Below are positions 9,956 through 17,015 of a stretch of DNA of 64,000 nucleotides, piece after piece. Position 1 is the stretch's first letter. Each line of letters starts with the position of its first letter. The notes beneath the pieces are model-generated. The model was given only the letters and a program-made list of their open reading frames with translations, was not told the origin of the DNA and did no database searches. Both the position numbers and the translations under genes were made by a program. This stretch comes from Elusimicrobiota bacterium (GTDB lineage: Bacteria; Elusimicrobiota; Elusimicrobia; UBA1565; JACRDR01), in assembly GCA_041694815.1 (NCBI GenBank), contig JBGFSC010000004.1, positions 32,001 to 96,000 of the forward strand, given 5' to 3'.

Positions 9956-11278
9956 GTGCGTTGGCTGCTCCTATGCGTAGCCGCGTGCGCGGCACATCCC
10001 GCGCGCGCGGCCATCTTCAACGACGTGCTCCCGGGCGCGCGGCCCATGGGCATGGGAATGGCCTACACGGCCGTCGGCGACGATCCCAGCGCGATGTATT
10101 TCAATCCGGGCGGCCTGGCCGGCTCGGATTTGACCGAGTTTGGCGGCAGCGTGGGGCGCATGTACTCGCCGGTGGGTCCTCTCTCCTTCGTGACGGCCAC
10201 CTATATTCGCCCCCTGCCACTTCGGCCAAATTCCGTCGTCGGCGCCTCGTTTATGACGCTGCGCGAGAACAACGGCGGGGACAAGGATCAGTTCCTGCTG
10301 CATTATTCGGAGCCGATGAAGTTGCCCCAGCTGCAGCTGACCCGGCCGGCGAAGCTCGGCGCCAACCTTAAGTTCATCAACCTCGACGGCGGGACTAAGG
10401 GCGAAAAATTCGGCCTGGGCCTGGATCTCGGGGCCGTGCTGGAATCCGATTTCGGCCTGCGCTTCGGCGCCTCATTGACCGACCTGACTATGAAGCTGGG
10501 CGTCCCCAACCCATCGCTCAACCTGGGCCTGGGGTACAGCTACGATTGGGTGACCGTCGCCACCGATCTCCGCGTGCGGCAAGGAGCGACCGAGTTCTAT
10601 CCCGGTGTCGAGGGGTCGTTCTTCCACGGCCTGCTCAAGGCCCGCCTCGGGAAAGGAATGCCGCTCCACGGGGTCAGCCAGGTCGCTTTTGGGGTGGGGT
10701 TCAATGTATCGCCGGTCATCATCGATTACGCCATGACCATCCCCTTCAAGGGTATCAACCATGCCGGCGGCGCGTACCAAATGACACTTAATTATAAGTT
10801 CGATGCTCCGGTGTTCTACGGCCGCTTCGTGGGCGCCGCCGCCAAGCAGGCCGAGGAGATCAAGATGGAGCTGCTGCGCTTAGAGGATCGGCGCAAGACC
10901 CTCGAGGCGCAGACCCAGACCACCGAGGCGGCCAAATTGTCGCTGGAGGGGGAGCTACGTTCGATGGAATCGCGCGCCAAGAGCCTGCAGGAGGAAGTGC
11001 GCGCCCTGGAGATCCAAGCCGAGCAGCTGCATTACAAGGCGGCGCAGCCACGCCTGCCGAAGGAGACCCCCCCGCCGCCGCCCCCCAAGCCCGCGGCTCC
11101 CCGCTTTCCGCGCCCTCACGCGGTGGTCCCGGGAGACACCTTGCGCTCCTTGGCGGCGATGTATTACGGCGACCCCAATCTTTGGGAGCTCATCTACGAC
11201 GCCAACCCCGACAAGATCGACCGCGGGTTGCCCCAGGAAGGAAGCGTGTTGACCATCCCGCCGCCGGTGAGGCATTAG
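9956..11278 (+). CDS. PorV/PorQ-like beta-barrel + coiled coil + LysM protein
   Basis: GARPMGMGMAYTAV..D.SAMYFNPGGLA (PorV/FadL-like N-terminus); heptad region; Pro linker; VVPGDTLRSLAAMYYGDPNLWELIYDAN LysM. Confidence 0.82.
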   Translation: MRWLLLCVAACAAHPARAAIFNDVLPGARPMGMGMAYTAVGDDPSAMYFNPGGLAGSDLTEFGGSVGRMYSPVGPLSFVTATYIRPLPLRPNSVVGASFMTLRENNGGDKDQFLLHYSEPMKLPQLQLTRPAKLGANLKFINLDGGTKGEKFGLGLDLGAVLESDFGLRFGASLTDLTMKLGVPNPSLNLGLGYSYDWVTVATDLRVRQGATEFYPGVEGSFFHGLLKARLGKGMPLHGVSQVAFGVGFNVSPVIIDYAMTIPFKGINHAGGAYQMTLNYKFDAPVFYGRFVGAAAKQAEEIKMELLRLEDRRKTLEAQTQTTEAAKLSLEGELRSMESRAKSLQEEVRALEIQAEQLHYKAAQPRLPKETPPPPPPKPAAPRFPRPHAVVPGDTLRSLAAMYYGDPNLWELIYDANPDKIDRGLPQEGSVLTIPPPVRH

Positions 11279-11287
11279 GAAGCTAGT

Positions 11288-12442
11288 ATGGCATTGGTGG
11301 CGCTGCTTGGCTCAGATCCCGAATCGCGGCGCTCCTTGACCCTGGCGATCGAGGAGATGGGCCACCGCGTCTGCGGCCTCCCGACGCTGGAGGCGATGGA
11401 GGAGGCTCTCTCCGGCCAGAGGCCGCAGCTGCTCGTGGTGGCCTGCGAGGAGGGCTCCCGCCAGGCTGAGCTCGCGCTGGCGGAGGCGGACCGGCTCAGC
11501 CCTCTGCTTCCCGTGATCGTCGCCTTGGAGCGCCGCGACGCCTCGCGCGCGGTGGAACTGATGCTGATGGGTGCCTGCGAGGTCGTCCCGCCTCCCTGGA
11601 CCCGGGAGAACCTTTCGGCCTGCGTGGCCAAGGCACTGCGCTCGCGCGGCACGGGCTTCGAGCCGGTGCTTCCTAAGGCCGAGATCCGCCGCAGCCGGCT
11701 GGCGGCGGCCCTGCTCGGGGCTCTGCTCATGGCTGCGGGATTTTTTTCATGGTCGGCGTACCAGCGCCGCCTGGAGGCCATGCGGCCCCAAGCCAATGCT
11801 TGGGATCTGCCGACCTCGCATCCCTCCGGCCTCGCCTACCGCGAAGGGGAGCTCTGGGTGTCGGATTGGTTCTCGCAGAGCGTTTACCGCTACGACGCGC
11901 GGCGGCACGCCTGGCGCCGCGCGGTTTTCTTCCCGAAAGAGACCCCGATGGCCATGACGCTGAGCGCCGACGCCTTGTGGCTGGTCTCGACCCCTGGGCT
12001 GTTCACCAAGCACATGCTCGACGAGCGGCTGACGGCGCTGTCGAAGCTGGCCGATTCCCACGGACCGACCGTCGCGTTGGCATTCGATGGGCTCTACCTC
12101 TGGAGCGTGGACCGCCGCGCCCGCCGTATGCATAAGCGGCTGCTCGACGGCCAATTGACCGTGCTGGCCTCCTACGCGTATCCGGGTGTGGAGCCCGCGG
12201 CGCTGGCCTTCGACGGCAAGGGGCTCTGGTCGCTGGATGCCGCCAATCGCGAATTGCTGCGCCATGAGCTCGAGGACCCCAGGATCGTGACGCGCAAGCT
12301 GCCGCTGCCCGAATACGCGTCGGGGCTCTGGCGCCCCCGGGGCCTGGCCTTCGACGGCGCGTCCTTCTGGAGCGTGGCCGAAGGCAAGGACGCGGCACCG
12401 CGCCCGGGGCGCCTTTTCCGCCACCGGCTGCCCTCCTCATGA
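11288..12442 (+). CDS. Degenerate receiver domain + TM helix + periplasmic beta-propeller
   Basis: REC-like N-terminus without the acidic pocket or phospho-Asp; TM helix; repeated (G/A)LA(F/Y)DG..LWS blades. Confidence 0.7.
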   Translation: MALVALLGSDPESRRSLTLAIEEMGHRVCGLPTLEAMEEALSGQRPQLLVVACEEGSRQAELALAEADRLSPLLPVIVALERRDASRAVELMLMGACEVVPPPWTRENLSACVAKALRSRGTGFEPVLPKAEIRRSRLAAALLGALLMAAGFFSWSAYQRRLEAMRPQANAWDLPTSHPSGLAYREGELWVSDWFSQSVYRYDARRHAWRRAVFFPKETPMAMTLSADALWLVSTPGLFTKHMLDERLTALSKLADSHGPTVALAFDGLYLWSVDRRARRMHKRLLDGQLTVLASYAYPGVEPAALAFDGKGLWSLDAANRELLRHELEDPRIVTRKLPLPEYASGLWRPRGLAFDGASFWSVAEGKDAAPRPGRLFRHRLPSS

Positions 12443-12762
12443 TCCGGCGATCCTCGAAGACGCTTCCGGTGCGCTTTGATTTTCCTCCCCAGGAGGACCG
12501 ACAGGAGGGTTGGGGTCGATTCCTCGAACTCGGAGCCGGCGGGGCCCGGCTCCTGTCGCGCTTTCGCCTCGGGGATGGGGACAGCCTGCGGCTCGACTTC
12601 GAGCTTTCCGGGGAGACGTTCAACGGCCTGGCAGCCCAGGTCCGGCGGGCGTGGAAGGACGAGGACGGCTATTTCGTGGCCGAGCTGCGCTTTAAGGACG
12701 AGGTCGGAAAGAAGCGGTTGGAGAGAGTCCTGCGCGAGTTCCTCGCGCGCAGCCTTTATTGA
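12439..12762 (+). CDS. PilZ-domain protein (degenerate motifs)
   Basis: RRSSK.LPV, LELGAGGARL, AQVRR, ELRF; ATGA overlap. Confidence 0.7.
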   Translation: MIRRSSKTLPVRFDFPPQEDRQEGWGRFLELGAGGARLLSRFRLGDGDSLRLDFELSGETFNGLAAQVRRAWKDEDGYFVAELRFKDEVGKKRLERVLREFLARSLY

Positions 12763-13661
12763 CCCTTCGGGGGATGATACCAGGCTCCGCCGCTATTGCT
12801 CGTAGTGGACATGGTCTGCGCGTCCACCTCGAGCATTTTCGCGACGTAGGTAATTTCTTGCGACAGGCTCTTGGCTTCTTCTAGCTTCGGACGGGCCTGC
12901 GGGGCATGATCGTATCGGTAGGTGTTGGGAAGCTCCACGGTGCTGGTCGTTCCGTCCGGGTTGCGCACGGTGGCCGTTCCTCCAAGGGAGACAAGGGTAG
13001 GGGTCGTGGCGATCGTCAATGCCTCATCGGCGGCATCGACTGCTTTTCCGCTCTGGCCGATGAGCCATTGCGCGTCCTTGACGAGAATCGTGGCGTCCTT
13101 GCTGCAATCCTTGGCCGTCTTGGCGGCGTTATCGGCCTTCGCCTTCGCCTCGGCGGCGTATTCCCTGGCTTCCAGTATCCTTACCGTGGCGGCATGGCTG
13201 GCGGGTCCGTCCTGCTGCGTCGCCTCGATTTCGTCGACGGCGCGCGAGGTTTGCTCCACGGCGGCAGCGGCCAGCGAGGCGGTGTTGACCGAACCGTAGA
13301 TGGCGCTGATGCTCAGGCCGCAAGGGTCCGGCTTCGGCGCGCAGGCGGCCAAGAGCAGCGAGAACGCCATCATGGCGGCGAAGGCCGCTCGGAACGCGCC
13401 GCCGCGCCGCGATTGGGCGGCCTTGGCGGCCGGAGACGGCACCCGCTTGATCGCTCGGGCGCTCGGGGAGCCTTCCGGCTTCGCAGTGCTTCTCGAGGAA
13501 GCGCCGGCCGCCACCGCGGAGGAATCCGCCGCGCCGATCTGCGCGCCCTCGAAGAGCGGGCGCGAGGCGACGGCCTGCTCCTCCAGGTCGCCAGCGCGAG
13601 CGGGCGCGAATCCGGCGAAAAAGATAAAAGCGAGTGCGATCAGAAATCCGGACGTTTTCAT
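12756..13661 (-). CDS. Secreted helical protein with internal lipobox, paralogue 3
   Basis: Signal peptide, LEEQAVASRPLFEG, internal LLLAA-C, DPC...DC. Confidence 0.8.
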   Translation of the reverse strand: MKTSGFLIALAFIFFAGFAPARAGDLEEQAVASRPLFEGAQIGAADSSAVAAGASSRSTAKPEGSPSARAIKRVPSPAAKAAQSRRGGAFRAAFAAMMAFSLLLAACAPKPDPCGLSISAIYGSVNTASLAAAAVEQTSRAVDEIEATQQDGPASHAATVRILEAREYAAEAKAKADNAAKTAKDCSKDATILVKDAQWLIGQSGKAVDAADEALTIATTPTLVSLGGTATVRNPDGTTSTVELPNTYRYDHAPQARPKLEEAKSLSQEITYVAKMLEVDAQTMSTTSNSGGAWYHPPKGQ

Positions 13662-14518
13662 CGGCTCTTTTGCGCGCTGGCCGGCAGGCGGGCGGCGGCT
13701 TGTTGGAGCGCGCCGACGCGGGCGAGAGACTCTTTCGATGAATTCTGCGCGGCGGAGAGTTCATCCTTCGCGCCCGAAACGTCGTTATTATAATGATCGA
13801 CGCGGCGATCGGTAATCCCGTCGTTGTCGTCGTCGTAGCGGTGGGTATGGGTCGCCTGCTCGTAGGAGTCCCGTAACGCGGAGACCGTATGATCGTTTTG
13901 GGCCACCAGATTTTGGGCGTCGGCGACGACGTGGGTCGCTTCTGGCGCGCAGTCCGGCGCGACCCCAAAGGCCTTGCCGACGCTGGCGCGCGCCTCGCGC
14001 GCGGCTTGTTCCGCGTTGGCTACAGCGGATTTCGCGGCCCTCGACTTTTCGTGCCGGTTCGCGCTGATTCCCTTGCTTAACTCTTGAACGGCCGCCTCGC
14101 TTTTTTCAACCGCCGTTACGGTCTGCCCAACGGCGTTTTGGGTCAGTTCGCATGGATCAACAGGTTTGCCGCCGCAGGCGCCGAGCACAAGGGAGACGGC
14201 CATGAGGGCCACCATGAATGCGCCGAAAAATCCGCGCCCCTGGGACCGCACTTTCGCCTCCGCGCCTGCCGGGGCGGCAACGATGCGCGTCCCGCGGCCA
14301 CGATCGGCCGTTGACGGCGAGGCAAGACTGGCCCTCCCCGCCGCGTTAGCCTCCCGTTGGACCGCGACGCTCGCGGGCGCTGCGGCCTGTTGTCCTTCAA
14401 ACAGCGGTCGTGACGCTACGGCTTGCTCCTCGATGCTTCCGCGAGAATCTTGAGCGGATCCGATGGACAGGCAGCCCATGGCCCCCGCGGCCAAGAGGAA
14501 AATTTTGCGCGCGTTCAC
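13658..14518 (-). CDS. Secreted helical protein with internal lipobox, paralogue 2
   Basis: Signal peptide, IEEQAVASRPLFEG, internal LVLGA-C, DPCELTQNA...PDC; 4-nt overlaps with both neighbours. Confidence 0.8.
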   Translation of the reverse strand: MNARKIFLLAAGAMGCLSIGSAQDSRGSIEEQAVASRPLFEGQQAAAPASVAVQREANAAGRASLASPSTADRGRGTRIVAAPAGAEAKVRSQGRGFFGAFMVALMAVSLVLGACGGKPVDPCELTQNAVGQTVTAVEKSEAAVQELSKGISANRHEKSRAAKSAVANAEQAAREARASVGKAFGVAPDCAPEATHVVADAQNLVAQNDHTVSALRDSYEQATHTHRYDDDNDGITDRRVDHYNNDVSGAKDELSAAQNSSKESLARVGALQQAAARLPASAQKSR

Positions 14519-15426
14519 TTGTTTCCCGTCGTGGAATTAGGGATGTTGGCAGCGGTCTGCTTGAGAGCGTCGAGCTCGGTTAGGGCGCGTTGCAGGGAAG
14601 CCTGGGCGGCCTTTAGGGATTCTTTCGCGGCCCCGAGCTTGGAGTCGGACACCCACACATCGTCTCCCGAGATGGTTGTCGTGGTGCCATCGGCATTCTG
14701 AATCGTCGTGTCGCCAGTATAATAAGTCGCTTGATCGTACGCTTTTCGGGCGATATCATTCGTACCGCGATTTTGCGCCAAGAGATTCTGCGCGTCGGCT
14801 AAGGCATGCGTGGCCTCCGGCGAGCAGTCGGGAGCGGTTTGGAACGCGGTTTTGACGGCACCTTGGGCCGCATGTTGAGCGTCGCGTGCGCGGCCGATCG
14901 CGTTCTTGGAATCATAGGGGCTTGCCCTGGAGCCGCGTTCAGTATGGACGCTCTTATCCAATGTTTGCACGGCGGATTCGCTTTTCCCGACGGCGTTGGC
15001 CGTCTGGGATATGGCGTTCTGGGTCAATTCGCAGGGGTCGGTGATCTTTGTCCCGCCCCCGCAGGCGCTTAGCAGGCCCAGCGCGAGTAATCCGACCATG
15101 AGCGCCGCCGCTACCCGGCGGCCCAGGCCGGGTCGTTTTTGAGATCGAACATTCGCGGGCGCCGGAGGCTGTGATTTTGATCGGAGTTGCGAGGCCTGCT
15201 GTGGGGCCCCGCCGACGGATGATCCCGACGCGTTGCCGAGGTTCACAGACGGATCTCGTGGCCCGATCTGCGTCCCCTCAAATGTTGGCCGCGACGCGAC
15301 GGCCTGCTCTTCAAGGGAGCCGCTCGGTTCGGCGGAAATGACCGTGGGGGTTAGGGCGAGCGTGATGATTAAAAAGCCAGAGAGTTTTATTGCAAAAACA
15401 GCCGTCGGGATATTTCCTTTGTTCAT
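14515..15426 (-). CDS. Secreted helical protein with internal lipobox, paralogue 1
   Basis: ATG 15426 with GGGAG RBS; signal peptide, LEEQAVASRPTFEG, internal LLSA-C, DPCELTQNA...PDC. Confidence 0.8.
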   Translation of the reverse strand: MNKGNIPTAVFAIKLSGFLIITLALTPTVISAEPSGSLEEQAVASRPTFEGTQIGPRDPSVNLGNASGSSVGGAPQQASQLRSKSQPPAPANVRSQKRPGLGRRVAAALMVGLLALGLLSACGGGTKITDPCELTQNAISQTANAVGKSESAVQTLDKSVHTERGSRASPYDSKNAIGRARDAQHAAQGAVKTAFQTAPDCSPEATHALADAQNLLAQNRGTNDIARKAYDQATYYTGDTTIQNADGTTTTISGDDVWVSDSKLGAAKESLKAAQASLQRALTELDALKQTAANIPNSTTGNK

Positions 15427-15436
15427 CGATCTCCCG

Positions 15437-16213
15437 CTATTTGCCGTCGAGCTTCTGCCCCAGCAGGCGGCCGATTTTCCCAATGAGCCGGGAACCCTTG
15501 ACGGCGCCTATCACAGTCCCGACGAGCGACGCCAAGGCCACGAGTTGCATGAGTCCCTCGGCCCCACCAACCAAACTGAGAAGCGATGCCGCCATGAACG
15601 ATACGGTCAGCACAGCTCCGCCACCCAGCACCAGACCCAAGAAGCCGCCCAGCTTTTCCAGAACTCCCGCCCAAGTGAGGAAGGGAGGCCCAGGCTCCTT
15701 GCCGATCTTCCTGGCGAGCCAGGCCCCGAGATGGCCGCCTATCATGAAGCCGCCAGTGCCGCCGATTCCCAAGCCCAGGAGAAATAGGACGGGCGCCACT
15801 ATGAAAAGCAGTCCTATGAGCGCAAAACCGGCCCCCTCATTGTAGGGCGCATTGGGGTTGGTGAGGTAGGAGACGTTGGCCGCGACGGTATGCACCGCCC
15901 AGCCCGCGCCGGCAATAGCTCCGGACAGCATGCCGACAGCTTTTCCTGTGTCTCGCCCGAACTTGCTCTTGGGACCCTCCTCAGAGGGAGGCTCTGGCGG
16001 CTCGGAGCAATCGAGCGCCCGCCGTCCCGCCGTAACCGGAGCCACGGGGCGCGCCAATTTAAGCGCTTCGCGGATCGATGGCGCCTCAGGCGCGGATCCA
16101 TTAACCTTGTTATGGTCGAAGAGTTGAGCGGCCGCTGCAGCATCCTTCTCTGGGACCTGCGCCCCGGCGAGGCTTGGGCCGAGCAGAAAAATGATAAATA
16201 ACGCGTCCTTCAT
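15437..16213 (-). CDS. Signal-peptide protein with several glycine-zipper hydrophobic helices
   Basis: GGAGG RBS; signal peptide, QLFDH, Pro linker; GxxxGxxxG segments (GMLSGAIAG, GGTGGFMIGGHLG, GGFLGLVLGG). Confidence 0.75.
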   Translation of the reverse strand: MKDALFIIFLLGPSLAGAQVPEKDAAAAAQLFDHNKVNGSAPEAPSIREALKLARPVAPVTAGRRALDCSEPPEPPSEEGPKSKFGRDTGKAVGMLSGAIAGAGWAVHTVAANVSYLTNPNAPYNEGAGFALIGLLFIVAPVLFLLGLGIGGTGGFMIGGHLGAWLARKIGKEPGPPFLTWAGVLEKLGGFLGLVLGGGAVLTVSFMAASLLSLVGGAEGLMQLVALASLVGTVIGAVKGSRLIGKIGRLLGQKLDGK

Positions 16214-16287
16214 GAAGGCCTCCAATTCCTGTCCAGCTATGGCTCCTTTGCGTCTAGGATTGTATCCGTCCCTCTATAATCTCGAAA

Positions 16288-16349
16288 AGAAGCGAAAGGC
16301 CTAAACCCCTAGAGTCTTTCGACCCACGAGAAAAAGGGCTAAAGGCCTA
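16288..16349. promoter_or_regulatory. Three 16-bp palindromic boxes at 23-bp period
   Basis: AGAAGC-GAAA-GGCCTA (16288), AGAGTC-TTTC-GACCCA (16311), AAGGGC-TAAA-GGCCTA (16334); minus-strand TACAAT -10 at 16259-16264. Confidence 0.65.
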
Positions 16350-16371
16350 TATTCTCCAACGCAACCTTATC

Positions 16372-16400
16372 TTGACTTCACTAAGAGATCGCGGTATACT
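16372..16400 (+). promoter_or_regulatory. Sigma70 promoter of the toxin-antitoxin operon
   Basis: TTGACT-17 nt-TATACT. Confidence 0.75.
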
Positions 16401-16434
16401 GGAGATACTTTAAACAGTACATTTGGAGGTACTA

Positions 16435-16713
16435 ATGGAGATTCATCCCCGTCAGGGCGTCCAGCCGATTTCCGACTTCCGCAAGGACAGCGCTCGAGTG
16501 CTAAAGCTGCTCCGCGAACGCCGGGAGCCGGTGATTTTGACCCAGAGAGGCCGTTCGGTGGCTGTCCTATTGGACGTTGAAACCTATGAGCGGTTGGAAT
16601 ATGCCTCGGGTTTGAGGGCCTCCTACATGAGAGGCGTCGAAGATCTCAAGCGGGGGCGGGCTCGCCCGCATGAGGAGGTCGCCAAAGAGGTGTTGGGCCG
16701 TCTTCGCGCATGA
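16435..16713 (+). CDS. Phd/YefM family antitoxin
   Basis: GGAGGT RBS; PISDFR...PVILTQRGRSVAVLLDVETYE. Confidence 0.9.
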   Translation: MEIHPRQGVQPISDFRKDSARVLKLLRERREPVILTQRGRSVAVLLDVETYERLEYASGLRASYMRGVEDLKRGRARPHEEVAKEVLGRLRA

Positions 16714-17015
16714 AACGATGTTCCGTCCGCTGGTCCGCCGAGGCTATCGGCAACCTGCGGGCGATCATCGAGCATATCGCCGTTGACTCGCCCTCCCGCG
16801 CGCATGCTTTCGCGGAAAAATTGCTTCAAAGCGCGGCGCGCCTGGGCGCCTTTCCTGGCTCCGGAAGGAGGGTGCCTGAACTTGCAGACCAGATTCCGCC
16901 ACCCCGCGAGATTTTGGTCGGGGAGTATAGGCTGCTTTACCGGGAGGGCGCCCGTGGCGTGGAAATCGTCACGATCGTCCATGGCCGCAGGCTGCTGCCG
17001 CGGTTCCGGGAATAG
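16710..17015 (+). CDS. RelE/ParE family toxin
   Basis: VRWS.EA..NL..I..HIA.DSP, FPGSGRRVPEL, YRLLYR, VHGRR; ATGA overlap. Confidence 0.9.
   Translation: MKRCSVRWSAEAIGNLRAIIEHIAVDSPSRAHAFAEKLLQSAARLGAFPGSGRRVPELADQIPPPREILVGEYRLLYREGARGVEIVTIVHGRRLLPRFRE

Follow-up and report, generated by a model that had tools for sequence, protein, structure and literature searches.

Three tandem genes in the analysed window, a 64,000-nucleotide stretch of the 2.77 Mb genome of an uncultured groundwater bacterium, encode proteins in which a lipoprotein-type signal stands well inside the chain, behind an ordinary signal peptide. As judged from the sequence, both signals are real features of one translated chain. 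The explanation that we favor, with a probability of about 0.5, is that the proteins are pre-pro-lipoproteins composed of two fused modules, and that cleavage by LspA at an invariant cysteine would part a tagged pro-peptide from a lipid-anchored helical bundle.

Organization of the locus

The region 12756-15426 holds the genes A, B and C, all on the minus strand. The initial annotation had described them as three tandem paralogues with two export signals each, and this description agrees with the features found at these positions, except that the family comprises 14 members and not three. The operon begins with a fourth gene, P0004. The features are as follows:

15437..16213, minus strand: P0004, first gene of the operon; signal peptide, tag EKDAAAAAQLFDH, linker and Gly-rich multi-span membrane domain; tag model 44.8 bits
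14515..15426, minus strand: gene A (P0001, 303 aa), candidate pre-pro-lipoprotein; ATG start with GGGAG 5 nt upstream
15331..15426, minus strand: first signal of gene A, residues 1-32 (predicted cut at ...TPTVISA/E)
15274..15315, minus strand: tag of gene A, LEEQAVASRPTFEG, residues 38-51
15061..15147, minus strand: second signal of gene A; basic patch RSQKRPGLGRR, h-region VAAALMVGLLALGLLSA, lipobox LSAC; Cys122 codon at 15061-15063
14518..15060, minus strand: predicted mature part of gene A product; Gly-rich tether and four-helix bundle with Cys132 and Cys201
13658..14518, minus strand: gene B (P0002, 286 aa); GTG start in a GTGA overlap with the gene A stop
14453-14518, 14393-14434 and 14174-14254, minus strand: first signal, tag and second signal of gene B; Cys115 codon at 14174-14176
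12756..13661, minus strand: gene C (P0003, 301 aa); ATG start in an ATGA overlap with the gene B stop
13593-13661, 13545-13586 and 13341-13409, minus strand: first signal, tag and second signal of gene C; Cys107 codon at 13341-13343

The ATG of P0004 is preceded by GGAGG at a distance of 6 nt, and its product matched no family in Pfam or NCBIfam. An Rfam search of positions 12000-17000 gave no match, and a scan for promoters and terminators found none on the coding strand. As regards expression, a look-up of the locus listed no sequencing run.

Shine-Dalgarno sequences and the GTGA and ATGA stop-start overlaps are located at the upstream starts. These coupled overlaps show that translation begins at the first signal, and the whole frame is thus read from the upstream start. 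The third codon position has the highest GC content of the three positions in the N-terminal part, as it does in the C-terminal domain.

The first signal, the tag and the linker

The first signals of the three window proteins end in putative cut sites with small residues at positions -3 and -1 (ISA/E, GSA/Q and ARA/G). By eye, small or aliphatic residues were found at these positions in all 15 proteins with the layout described below (14 paralogues and one outside homologue); a crude scripted scan also returned 15 of 15 but misplaced the site in three paralogues on contig C9. The first stretch carries N-terminal K/R, a Pro near -3/-1 and acidic residues just downstream, with an uncharged run of 10-21 residues (median 16).

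The first signal is followed in the window genes by the tag (L/I)EEQAVASRP(L/T)FEG and then by a linker rich in Ala, Ser and Pro; the near-invariant motif and linker had been noted initially and were recovered here. The tag consensus is x-E-x2-K-x2-S-G-x2-F-x-E/G, with an invariant Glu and an invariant Phe ten residues apart, of which LEEQAVASRPxFEG is the form in the window. Pairs of the three window copies show 7-9 synonymous changes in the 14 codons of the tag against only 1-2 non-synonymous ones, a pattern of purifying selection. A DNA or RNA motif was ruled out, because the third codon positions vary. The linker is disordered and contains no Cys. Exosortase/PEP-type sorting, which was considered on account of a Pro-rich 'VPPEP'-like linker motif, was rejected, as no exosortase scored above the cut-off.

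The second signal

In the window proteins a basic patch is followed by an uncharged stretch of 15-19 residues ending in LSAC (Cys122), LGAC (Cys115) and LAAC (Cys107), so that the second complete lipoprotein-type signal of the initial annotation is found in all three. Family-wide the hydrophobic stretch measures 12-19 residues, with 12-16 in the eight paralogues on contig C9, and in all 14 paralogues the net charge of the 15 residues preceding it is between +2 and +6. The lipobox Cys, at residue 59-122, is kept in every paralogue and in P0018, the sole homologue outside the genome, whose basic patch is NKGGARRGRRG; its conservation in homologues, on which the initial annotation had made its proposal depend, was thereby found. 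All 15 proteins have a relaxed lipobox (x-x-[GAS]-C with G, A or S as the next residue), and seven have the strict form [LVI][ASTVI][GAS]C; the other eight are less canonical, with G or A at -3 or G at -2.

The second signal begins 45-95 residues into the chain. The two hydrophobic stretches lie 26-77 residues apart, the first signal being joined to the basic patch without any further hydrophobic segment, and the loop between the stretches contains 5-11 K+R, compared with 0-2 in the N-tail. Crude Hessa sums over 19 residues of the second helix range from -1.1 to +5.5 kcal/mol (window genes, -1.1 to +1.4). C-terminal to the lipobox Cys follow 142-297 residues, in which 14 of 14 paralogues have two or four further Cys, an even number that suggests disulfides. 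The genome encodes one Lgt and one LspA.

The helical domain

The AlphaFold2 model of the gene A product has pLDDT values above 90 across most of residues 131-293, which form a four-helix bundle. The bundle contains Cys132 and Cys201, the invariant DPC...DC pair, in agreement with the helical domain and cysteine pair described initially. In the monomer model the tag makes no contact with the bundle, and docking of the tag on its own bundle was thus not seen. Structure comparison with sensor domains of the 4HB_MCP type (4k0d, 2yfa, 6s18) gave a best Z of 12.5 and an rmsd of 2.5-3.0 Å over 127-140 residues, a range common for helical bundles. Foldseek against the PDB returned only generic helical bundles, none at E <=0.001, and the ESM Atlas gave no usable match.

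From these features, module 2 has the form of a complete lipoprotein precursor, with a basic n-region, a short h-region, a lipobox, the Cys, a Gly/Pro-rich tether and the predicted four-helix bundle.

Family size and relatives

The 14 paralogues and the metagenomic P0018, a distant homologue, share one layout in 15 of 15 cases: signal, tag, linker, basic patch, lipobox and helical bundle. Identity among the paralogues is about 20-40%, and three Cys are the only invariant columns over the 14. A crude genome-wide pattern scan returned 18 frames, of which 12 belong to the family; the remaining six encode multi-pass membrane proteins or an ordinary lipoprotein.

When 5.8 billion proteins were searched through a word index, P0018 was the only match apart from genes of this genome. 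Scans of GTDB genome contigs and JGI metagenome contigs, for which the three-gene alignment and P0018 served as queries, gave no relative that tblastn confirmed, and a family profile gave 0 matches in 40 genomes of the same family or order. For the three window proteins, Pfam, NCBIfam, PHROGs and PDB sequences held nothing above threshold, and hence no known bitopic membrane family, a match to which would have spoken against the initial proposal. The genes are lineage-specific and tandemly expanded.

In a search of 1.84 billion proteins, P0020, P0021, P0022 and P0024 matched at E-values of 1.6e-4 to 3.2e-4; they are ordinary N-terminal lipoproteins, and the alignment begins at the second signal of the paralogues. 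Two probable distant relatives are encoded on contig C24 (E 5.7e-6 per genome, hhalign probability only 26%); they have a 20-residue helix without Cys, and their kinship to the family is weakly supported.

The leader on other proteins

The motif is not private to the three genes: a search for it in the genome and in relatives, as initially suggested, found it on dozens of proteins here and on exported enzymes there. At least 37 further small membrane proteins of this genome begin with the same leader. Of 400 other Elusimicrobiota genomes, 29 have the tag behind signal peptides, at the head of exported enzymes; among the cargoes are a GH13 amylase domain, a PF10091 glucoamylase-like enzyme and DUF2141, and in one relative the tag lies within the mature part of a canonical lipoprotein. 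The N-terminal part, module 1, is a portable export leader, consisting of a signal of the Sec/signal-peptidase-I type, the tag and the disordered linker.

In this genome the leader also precedes a ClpB-like AAA+ ATPase, which is expected to work in the cytoplasm, and a leader-like start with a diverged tag precedes a 2OG-Fe dioxygenase. A second copy of glycogen synthase in two related genomes is headed by a signal-like start, a long linker and the tag. Given such cargoes, the leader would not always be a plain export signal. Of 44 leader-bearing proteins, 35 have more K+R on the N-flank than on the C-flank of the hydrophobic segment that comes next after the tag, which by the positive-inside rule would place the tag region in the cytoplasm.

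Proposed processing and alternative explanations

In the favored pre-pro-lipoprotein reading the second signal would be functional, with lipidation of the invariant Cys by Lgt and a cut before this residue by LspA. The mature protein would be a helical bundle, stabilised by a disulfide and anchored by its lipid outside the cytoplasm. The tag-bearing pro-peptide, about 75-90 residues long in the window genes and with the second hydrophobic stretch at its end, would be freed separately. We are least sure of the step in which the second signal comes to Lgt and LspA after the first has initiated export. Two signals that both lead the same chain from inside to outside conflict, because no hydrophobic stretch lies between them and a hydrophilic linker cannot span the membrane. 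By the route that we prefer, the second stretch would fail to stop transfer, since it would be too short and too weakly hydrophobic for this and have its charges on the wrong side; it would pass through SecYEG behind the pro-region, and processing would take place on the outer side of the inner membrane. We know of no experiment in which Lgt or LspA acted on a signal arriving from the periplasmic side. By the other route the two hydrophobic stretches would enter as a hairpin with the basic loop in the cytoplasm. The weaker points of the lipoprotein reading are the contig C24 relatives without Cys and the less canonical lipobox in eight of the 15 proteins.

The alternative that survives best, which we nevertheless hold to be unlikely, is a type I bitopic membrane protein: the first signal would be cut, the tag and linker would be periplasmic, the second stretch would serve as stop-transfer anchor, and the bundle would be cytoplasmic with an unused lipobox. 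This is the default Sec outcome for a cleaved signal plus one hydrophobic stretch, and the second helices in the window are long and hydrophobic enough, by the crude insertion sums, for stop-transfer to be possible. The exported proteins that bear the tag in relatives agree with it, and the ClpB-like protein could fit as well, with its ATPase in the cytoplasm. The initial annotation had named such a stop-transfer helix as the simpler alternative, but the fit is poor. The helix has its basic residues on the N-side and not on the C-side, it measures 12-19 residues where an anchor has approximately 19 or more, with only 12-16 in the eight contig C9 paralogues, and the lipobox with its invariant Cys stands at the helix end in 15 of 15 proteins despite the low identity. 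Moreover, the even Cys count suggests disulfides in the supposedly cytoplasmic domain, and the profile matches to ordinary lipoproteins start at the second signal.

Quite improbable, in our estimate, is one long two-part lipoprotein signal, inserted as a hairpin that would leave the short N-tail and the bundle outside and keep the tag, linker and basic patch in the cytoplasm, LspA being the sole cutter. The charge difference between loop and N-tail satisfies the positive-inside rule, as does the basic N-flank in most leader-bearing proteins; the AAA+, dioxygenase and glycogen synthase cargoes would stay in the cytoplasm, and a weak match to the NCBIfam lipo-invert model spans the second signal. 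The first stretch, however, resembles a cleaved signal and not an anchor in its length, its N-terminal K/R, its small -3/-1 residues, the nearby Pro and the acidic residues that follow, and in relatives the tag is carried by exported enzymes and once by the mature part of a lipoprotein.

That the genes encode ordinary lipoproteins from an internal start, with the upstream part a separate or irrelevant frame, we regard as very improbable. Gene B would yield a textbook lipoprotein signal from a GTG preceded by GGAGG at codon 90, and the public gene caller shortened three of the 14 genes to such a start (194, 197 and 150 aa). Yet gene B is the sole paralogue in which an internal start codon with a Shine-Dalgarno sequence would give the n-region, five of the 14 genes have no usable start codon there at all, no stop codon separates the two parts in any of the 15 proteins, the upstream starts are translationally coupled and the tag in the upstream frame is under purifying selection. 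The assumption of an upstream start, on which the initial annotation rested, thus generally holds.

A scheme of two signals for two membranes, in which the first signal and tag would direct export from the producer and the second would be read by the Sec, Lgt and LspA of a recipient bacterium, could account for the start-transfer-type segments and cytoplasm-type enzymes behind an export leader and for the lineage-specific, tandemly expanded genes, but is far-fetched, being purely inferential, with no delivery machine, prey or host found and with hydrophobic segments that the producer's own membrane should trap. The earlier suggestion that maturation of the cargo has to wait until the pro-region is removed, or until the cargo has been delivered into another cell, is a conjecture.

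Implications

In the textbook view a lipoprotein signal is strictly N-terminal, and membrane topology is set by the order in which topogenic signals follow one another. The 15 natural proteins described here hold a complete lipoprotein signal behind a complete ordinary signal, an arrangement that standard export rules do not explain, and about 40 further proteins in the same genome have an export leader ahead of segments expected to start and not to stop transfer. If the second signal is used, either Lgt and LspA act on internal signals of chains under export, or the leader is not for export. Either answer bears on annotation by gene callers and SignalP-type predictors, as the truncated public calls illustrate, and on the reuse of signal peptides as functional pro-peptides.

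A wider proposal, which we consider improbable, is that the signal and the E-x2-K-x2-S-G-x2-F tag constitute an undescribed post-Sec sorting code of Elusimicrobiota. It would be fused to approximately 50-60 proteins in which a start-transfer segment comes next (a lipoprotein signal or a basic-flanked membrane hairpin) and would act via a non-canonical route, with LspA splitting the tagged pro-peptide from the cargo. If true, it would imply insertion or lipidation from the periplasmic side, perhaps aided by the leader-bearing AAA+ ATPase, or alternatively delivery into a second membrane.

Comparison with known systems

A literature search on internal lipobox or lipoprotein signals, lipo-invert, tandem signal peptides and sorting motifs of Elusimicrobia found nothing relevant. 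As described in PMC2805444, the long signals of autotransporters and two-partner-secretion proteins have the order N1-H1-N2-H2-C with an extended signal peptide region, and they resemble the present proteins in the succession of a charged start, a hydrophobic stretch, a basic stretch, a second hydrophobic stretch and a cleavage site. Those signals comprise approximately 40-60 residues, whereas the pre-pro region here comprises 59-122; the stretches are widely spaced, the first has a cleavage-type site of its own and the second ends in a lipobox. Pfam found no autotransporter domain in the window proteins.

In dual Sec-Tat proteins such as the actinobacterial Rieske protein Sco2149, as described in PMC5449189, an internal signal past Sec-inserted segments exports the C-terminal domain. 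The likeness extends to an RR pair in nine of the 15 second signals and to a TatC encoded in the genome. The internal signal of the Rieske protein is preceded by two transmembrane helices, which makes its topology consistent; here only one hydrophobic stretch precedes the second signal, and no cofactor domain follows.

The hairpin arrangement considered above is comparable to the H1-P1-H2 of E. coli leader peptidase, to the lipo-invert hairpin and to the N1-H1-N2-H2-C of long autotransporter signals. In leader peptidase and in M13 procoat two hydrophobic stretches insert together and the charge of the loop sets the orientation; the N-tail of leader peptidase is not known to carry a positive charge nor the protein to be cleaved, and in M13 procoat the basic residues follow the second helix and do not precede it.

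The model NF058595 'invert_tail', a putative C-terminal anchoring domain of the lipo-invert type, also describes an internal lipoprotein-type signal after a basic patch. Residues 102-131 of P0001 scored 15.3 bits against it (E 0.019), below the cut-off of 37 bits, and the other two proteins gave no match; the present proteins differ in that only an N-terminal signal precedes the basic patch and a long domain follows the Cys. P0002 scored 15 bits (E 0.027) against the Lpp/OprI alanine-zipper model NF040598, below its cut-off of 43 bits. A formal parallel to the second module is the classical lipoprotein precursor, with its n-region, h-region, lipobox-Cys, Gly/Pro-rich tether and folded domain. 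The difference is one of position: there the signal is N-terminal, whereas here it stands within the chain, behind a signal peptide and a tag.

Organization of the operon and layout of the encoded proteins

The three tandem paralogues A, B and C (proteins P0001, P0002 and P0003) are arranged head to tail on the minus strand and share 32-43% protein identity. Because of the close spacing, the overlaps and the location of the flanking genes on the opposite strand, they were assigned together with P0004, the gene directly before A, to a four-gene operon. No family was matched by P0004.

9956-11278, plus strand: gene with a signal peptide; DUF5723 and LysM matches weak and below cut-off
11288-12442, plus strand: gene upstream of the PilZ gene, no family match
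12439-12762, plus strand: PilZ-domain gene, convergent
12756-13661, minus strand: gene C, 301 aa, ATG start inside an ATGA overlap with the preceding stop
13658-14518, minus strand: gene B, 286 aa, GTG start inside a GTGA overlap with the preceding stop
14515-15426, minus strand: gene A, 303 aa, ATG start, GGGAG 5 nt upstream
15437-16213, minus strand: P0004, first operon gene, 10 nt before A; signal peptide, same tag, Gly-rich multi-span membrane domain
16423-17015, plus strand: two small overlapping genes, by eye an antitoxin/toxin-like pair

The initial annotation had described two export signals per protein, a nearly invariant motif, an Ala/Ser/Pro linker and a helical domain with a Cys pair, and all of these were recovered in A, B and C: a first signal with small residues at -3/-1, the motif (L/I)EEQAVASRP(L/T)FEG (the tag), an Ala/Ser/Pro-rich linker, a basic patch followed by 15-19 uncharged residues ending in LSAC, LGAC or LAAC, and a helical domain with the DPC...DC pair. 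In the following, the first signal, tag and linker are referred to as the leader, the second signal and helical bundle as module 2.

Size and distribution of the family

When the genome that contains the window (2.77 Mb, 54 contigs, 97.8% complete) was searched with a profile, 14 paralogues were obtained, three in the window, two on contig C15, one on C17 and eight on C9, with an identical layout in 14 of 14. In the C9 group the two hydrophobic stretches are separated by only 26-40 residues, most genes begin directly next to or overlapping the preceding stop codon, and five of the eight proteins contain a second helical domain that has another Cys pair.

L024:3-5230 (contig C9), minus strand: two further genes extending the array
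L024:5227-12701 (contig C9), minus strand: eight tandem paralogues with short linker and the diverged tag QDFGxDT...
L023:306-2969 (contig C24), minus strand: two probable distant relatives with the tag variant PETQHAQAAALTDG and a DAC...KC pair

The initial annotation had made its reading depend on conservation of the lipobox Cys, which proved invariant across the 14 paralogues; together with the Cys pair it forms the sole invariant columns of their alignment. A HMMER search of 1.84 billion representative proteins returned 14 matches at E 1e-30 or better, whose lengths fit the genes of the same genome, two of them bearing the identifiers of window proteins. One outside homologue, the metagenomic protein P0018 (308 aa, E 2.9e-10), has the same layout including an LVGC lipobox and the Cys pair, and no further relatives were found by word-indexed search, by contig scans or among 40 genomes of the same family or order. 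The double-signal feature is real and reproducible. The two C24 proteins, whose kinship is weakly supported, have a 20-residue helix without lipobox Cys; if this kinship is real, an exchange between lipobox and longer anchor would be typical of in-to-out signals. A third leader-bearing membrane protein adjoins them. As judged from these searches, the family is private to one lineage, but its leader is more widespread in the phylum.

A portable leader

P0004 begins in the same way, with a signal followed by EKDAAAAAQLFDH, as do proteins of contigs C3, C17, C33 and C54. The six-frame ORFs of the genome were all searched with an iterated HMM; this procedure, which was permissive, required a signal-like upstream stretch and was open to drift, collected 45 frames (43 at E below 1e-3), 38 of which align gap-free with an invariant Glu and an invariant Phe ten residues apart. 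A hydrophobic segment follows the tag in 44 of the 45 frames, nearly always at a distance of 39-90 residues, and its N-terminal flank holds more K+R than its C-terminal flank in 35 of the 44, equally many in three and fewer in six. A second, Pro-rich motif (VP[PS]P, IVPPEP, IIVKEP) precedes the basic patch at a distance of between a few and about twenty residues, and 14 of the 45 frames end in ...RF[KR][LF], also written ...AE(E/D/K)RF(K/R)(L/F). The leader is shared by dozens of small membrane proteins with two or three spans, for example on contigs C46, C4, C2, C38 and C54, in which the Pro-rich motif precedes the first span. With a median uncharged run of 16 residues (range 10-21), the first stretch is by this measure signal-like rather than anchor-like.

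A tag model built from 38 sequences was run on 400 other genomes of the phylum and matched in 29 of them at E 1e-3 or better per genome (about 0.4 expected by chance), with a concentration in two families (16 of 47 and 10 of 48 genomes). In these relatives the tag follows a signal peptide on a GH13 alpha-amylase domain protein (in many genomes), a PF10091 glucoamylase-like enzyme, a DUF2141 protein, HExxH and M48-like proteases and small Gly-zipper membrane proteins. In one weak match (L116, 21.7 bits) it is located within the mature part of a canonical lipoprotein, about 45 residues in. Such placements argue for a genuine export role of the first signal and for action of the tag outside the cytoplasm. 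However, a second glycogen synthase copy (PF08323) in two genomes (L032:19-1884, minus strand, and L037; genomes G024 and G309), each also having a normal copy, starts in a signal-like manner, continues with about 100 residues of Pro/Ala-rich linker and has the tag immediately ahead of the enzyme's first strand. Further counter-evidence comes from the C9 array itself: a ClpB-like double AAA+ protein (1225 aa) has a signal-like start, the tag-like HAERLFDGS, an SAPPPGVE motif, a weak hydrophobic pair and, near the C-terminus, EAVSPLFEG as a second tag-like sequence, and a 2OG-Fe dioxygenase (PF10014) at the end of the array has a diverged leader (signal, EDFGG, basic patch) without second helix.

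Translation of the upstream part

The 14 tag codons differ between copies by 7-9 synonymous versus 1-2 non-synonymous changes; therefore, it is the peptide that is conserved and not a DNA or RNA sequence. Among the codon positions, GC content is highest at the third (GC3), both in the N-terminal part (0.72) and in the C-terminal domain (0.69). Translation from the internal signal, named in the initial annotation as an observation that would overturn it, was assessed in all 14 family genes by looking for start codons (ATG, GTG or TTG) in frame and so placed as to provide the second signal with an n-region. Such a start with a good Shine-Dalgarno sequence is present in gene B alone (GTG at codon 90, GGAGG), and in five of the 14 no codon of this kind occurs. 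Three of the 14 are shortened to 194, 197 and 150 aa in public gene calls (P0005, P0015, P0017), which begin inside or just before the second signal, and automatic annotation therefore hides the double-signal layout.

The second signal and the helical bundle

The second helix comprises 12-19 residues and is preceded by 15 residues with a net charge of +2 to +6, and the linker start is acidic. The lipobox is present in relaxed form in 15 of 15 sequences and in strict form in seven, and the residue after its Cys is always G, A or S (15 of 15). All 14 paralogues have two or four Cys after the lipobox Cys and none in the linker; an even number of Cys with none in the linker is expected for disulfide-bonded extracytoplasmic domains. 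Four matches from the large search (P0020, P0021, P0022 and P0024; E 1.6e-4 to 3.2e-4) are ordinary N-terminal lipoproteins aligning from the second signal onward, and module 2 accordingly resembles a lipoprotein precursor that once stood alone. The genome encodes a single Lgt and a single LspA. AlphaFold2 with the 14-sequence alignment modeled residues 131-293 of P0001 as a four-helix bundle (pLDDT mostly above 90) behind a disordered N-terminal part, with the conserved Cys pair at the N-terminal ends of helices 1 and 3, i.e. at the same end of the up-down bundle. Fold searches returned generic bundles only, the best being periplasmic four-helix sensor domains (Z 12.5, within the helical-bundle background of the tool). 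By its sequence features, the second signal looks functional.

Topology of the two signals

Both hydrophobic stretches show the charge pattern of an in-to-out signal, and the chain between them has no hydrophobic segment, so they cannot both take their preferred orientation. Because of the lipobox with its invariant Cys, the even number of Cys and the resemblance to ordinary lipoproteins, we consider it about an even chance (roughly 0.5) that the second signal is used and that the bundle would be a lipid-anchored protein outside the cytoplasm. In the favoured but conjectural route, the second stretch would follow the pro-region through SecYEG, since it is short, has crude insertion sums of -1.1 to +5.5 kcal/mol and lacks basic residues on its C-terminal side; processing would then take place on the outer side of the inner membrane. 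That it serves instead as a stop-transfer segment, the Sec default, seems unlikely, as lipobox, Cys pattern and charge placement would be left unexplained. Still more doubtful is a hairpin route, which agrees with the charge statistics but clashes with the signal-like first stretch and with the exported cargoes in relatives.

Comparison with known systems

The initial annotation had not recognised the architecture, and no family model fits; the nearest curated concept, the NCBIfam lipo-invert tail, scored 15.3 bits against a cut-off of 37. No publication describing a lipoprotein signal inside a chain that already begins with a signal peptide was found in the literature search. Long autotransporter signals are not known to be cut more than once, and dual Sec-Tat proteins have a consistent topology, with two helices before the internal signal. 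The latter show that internal signals can work in nature (PMC5449189), and lipoprotein signals are put to other uses in DAG-RiPPs (PMC13056109). The A/B/C family is rated as a putative lipoprotein-precursor variant with a topogenic conflict between its two signals, which is cheap to test. Its closest counterpart in grammar is the N1-H1-N2-H2-C order of long autotransporter signals; these, however, are much shorter and have a signal-peptidase-I-type site at their end, whereas the second signal of A, B and C ends in a lipobox (PMC2805444).
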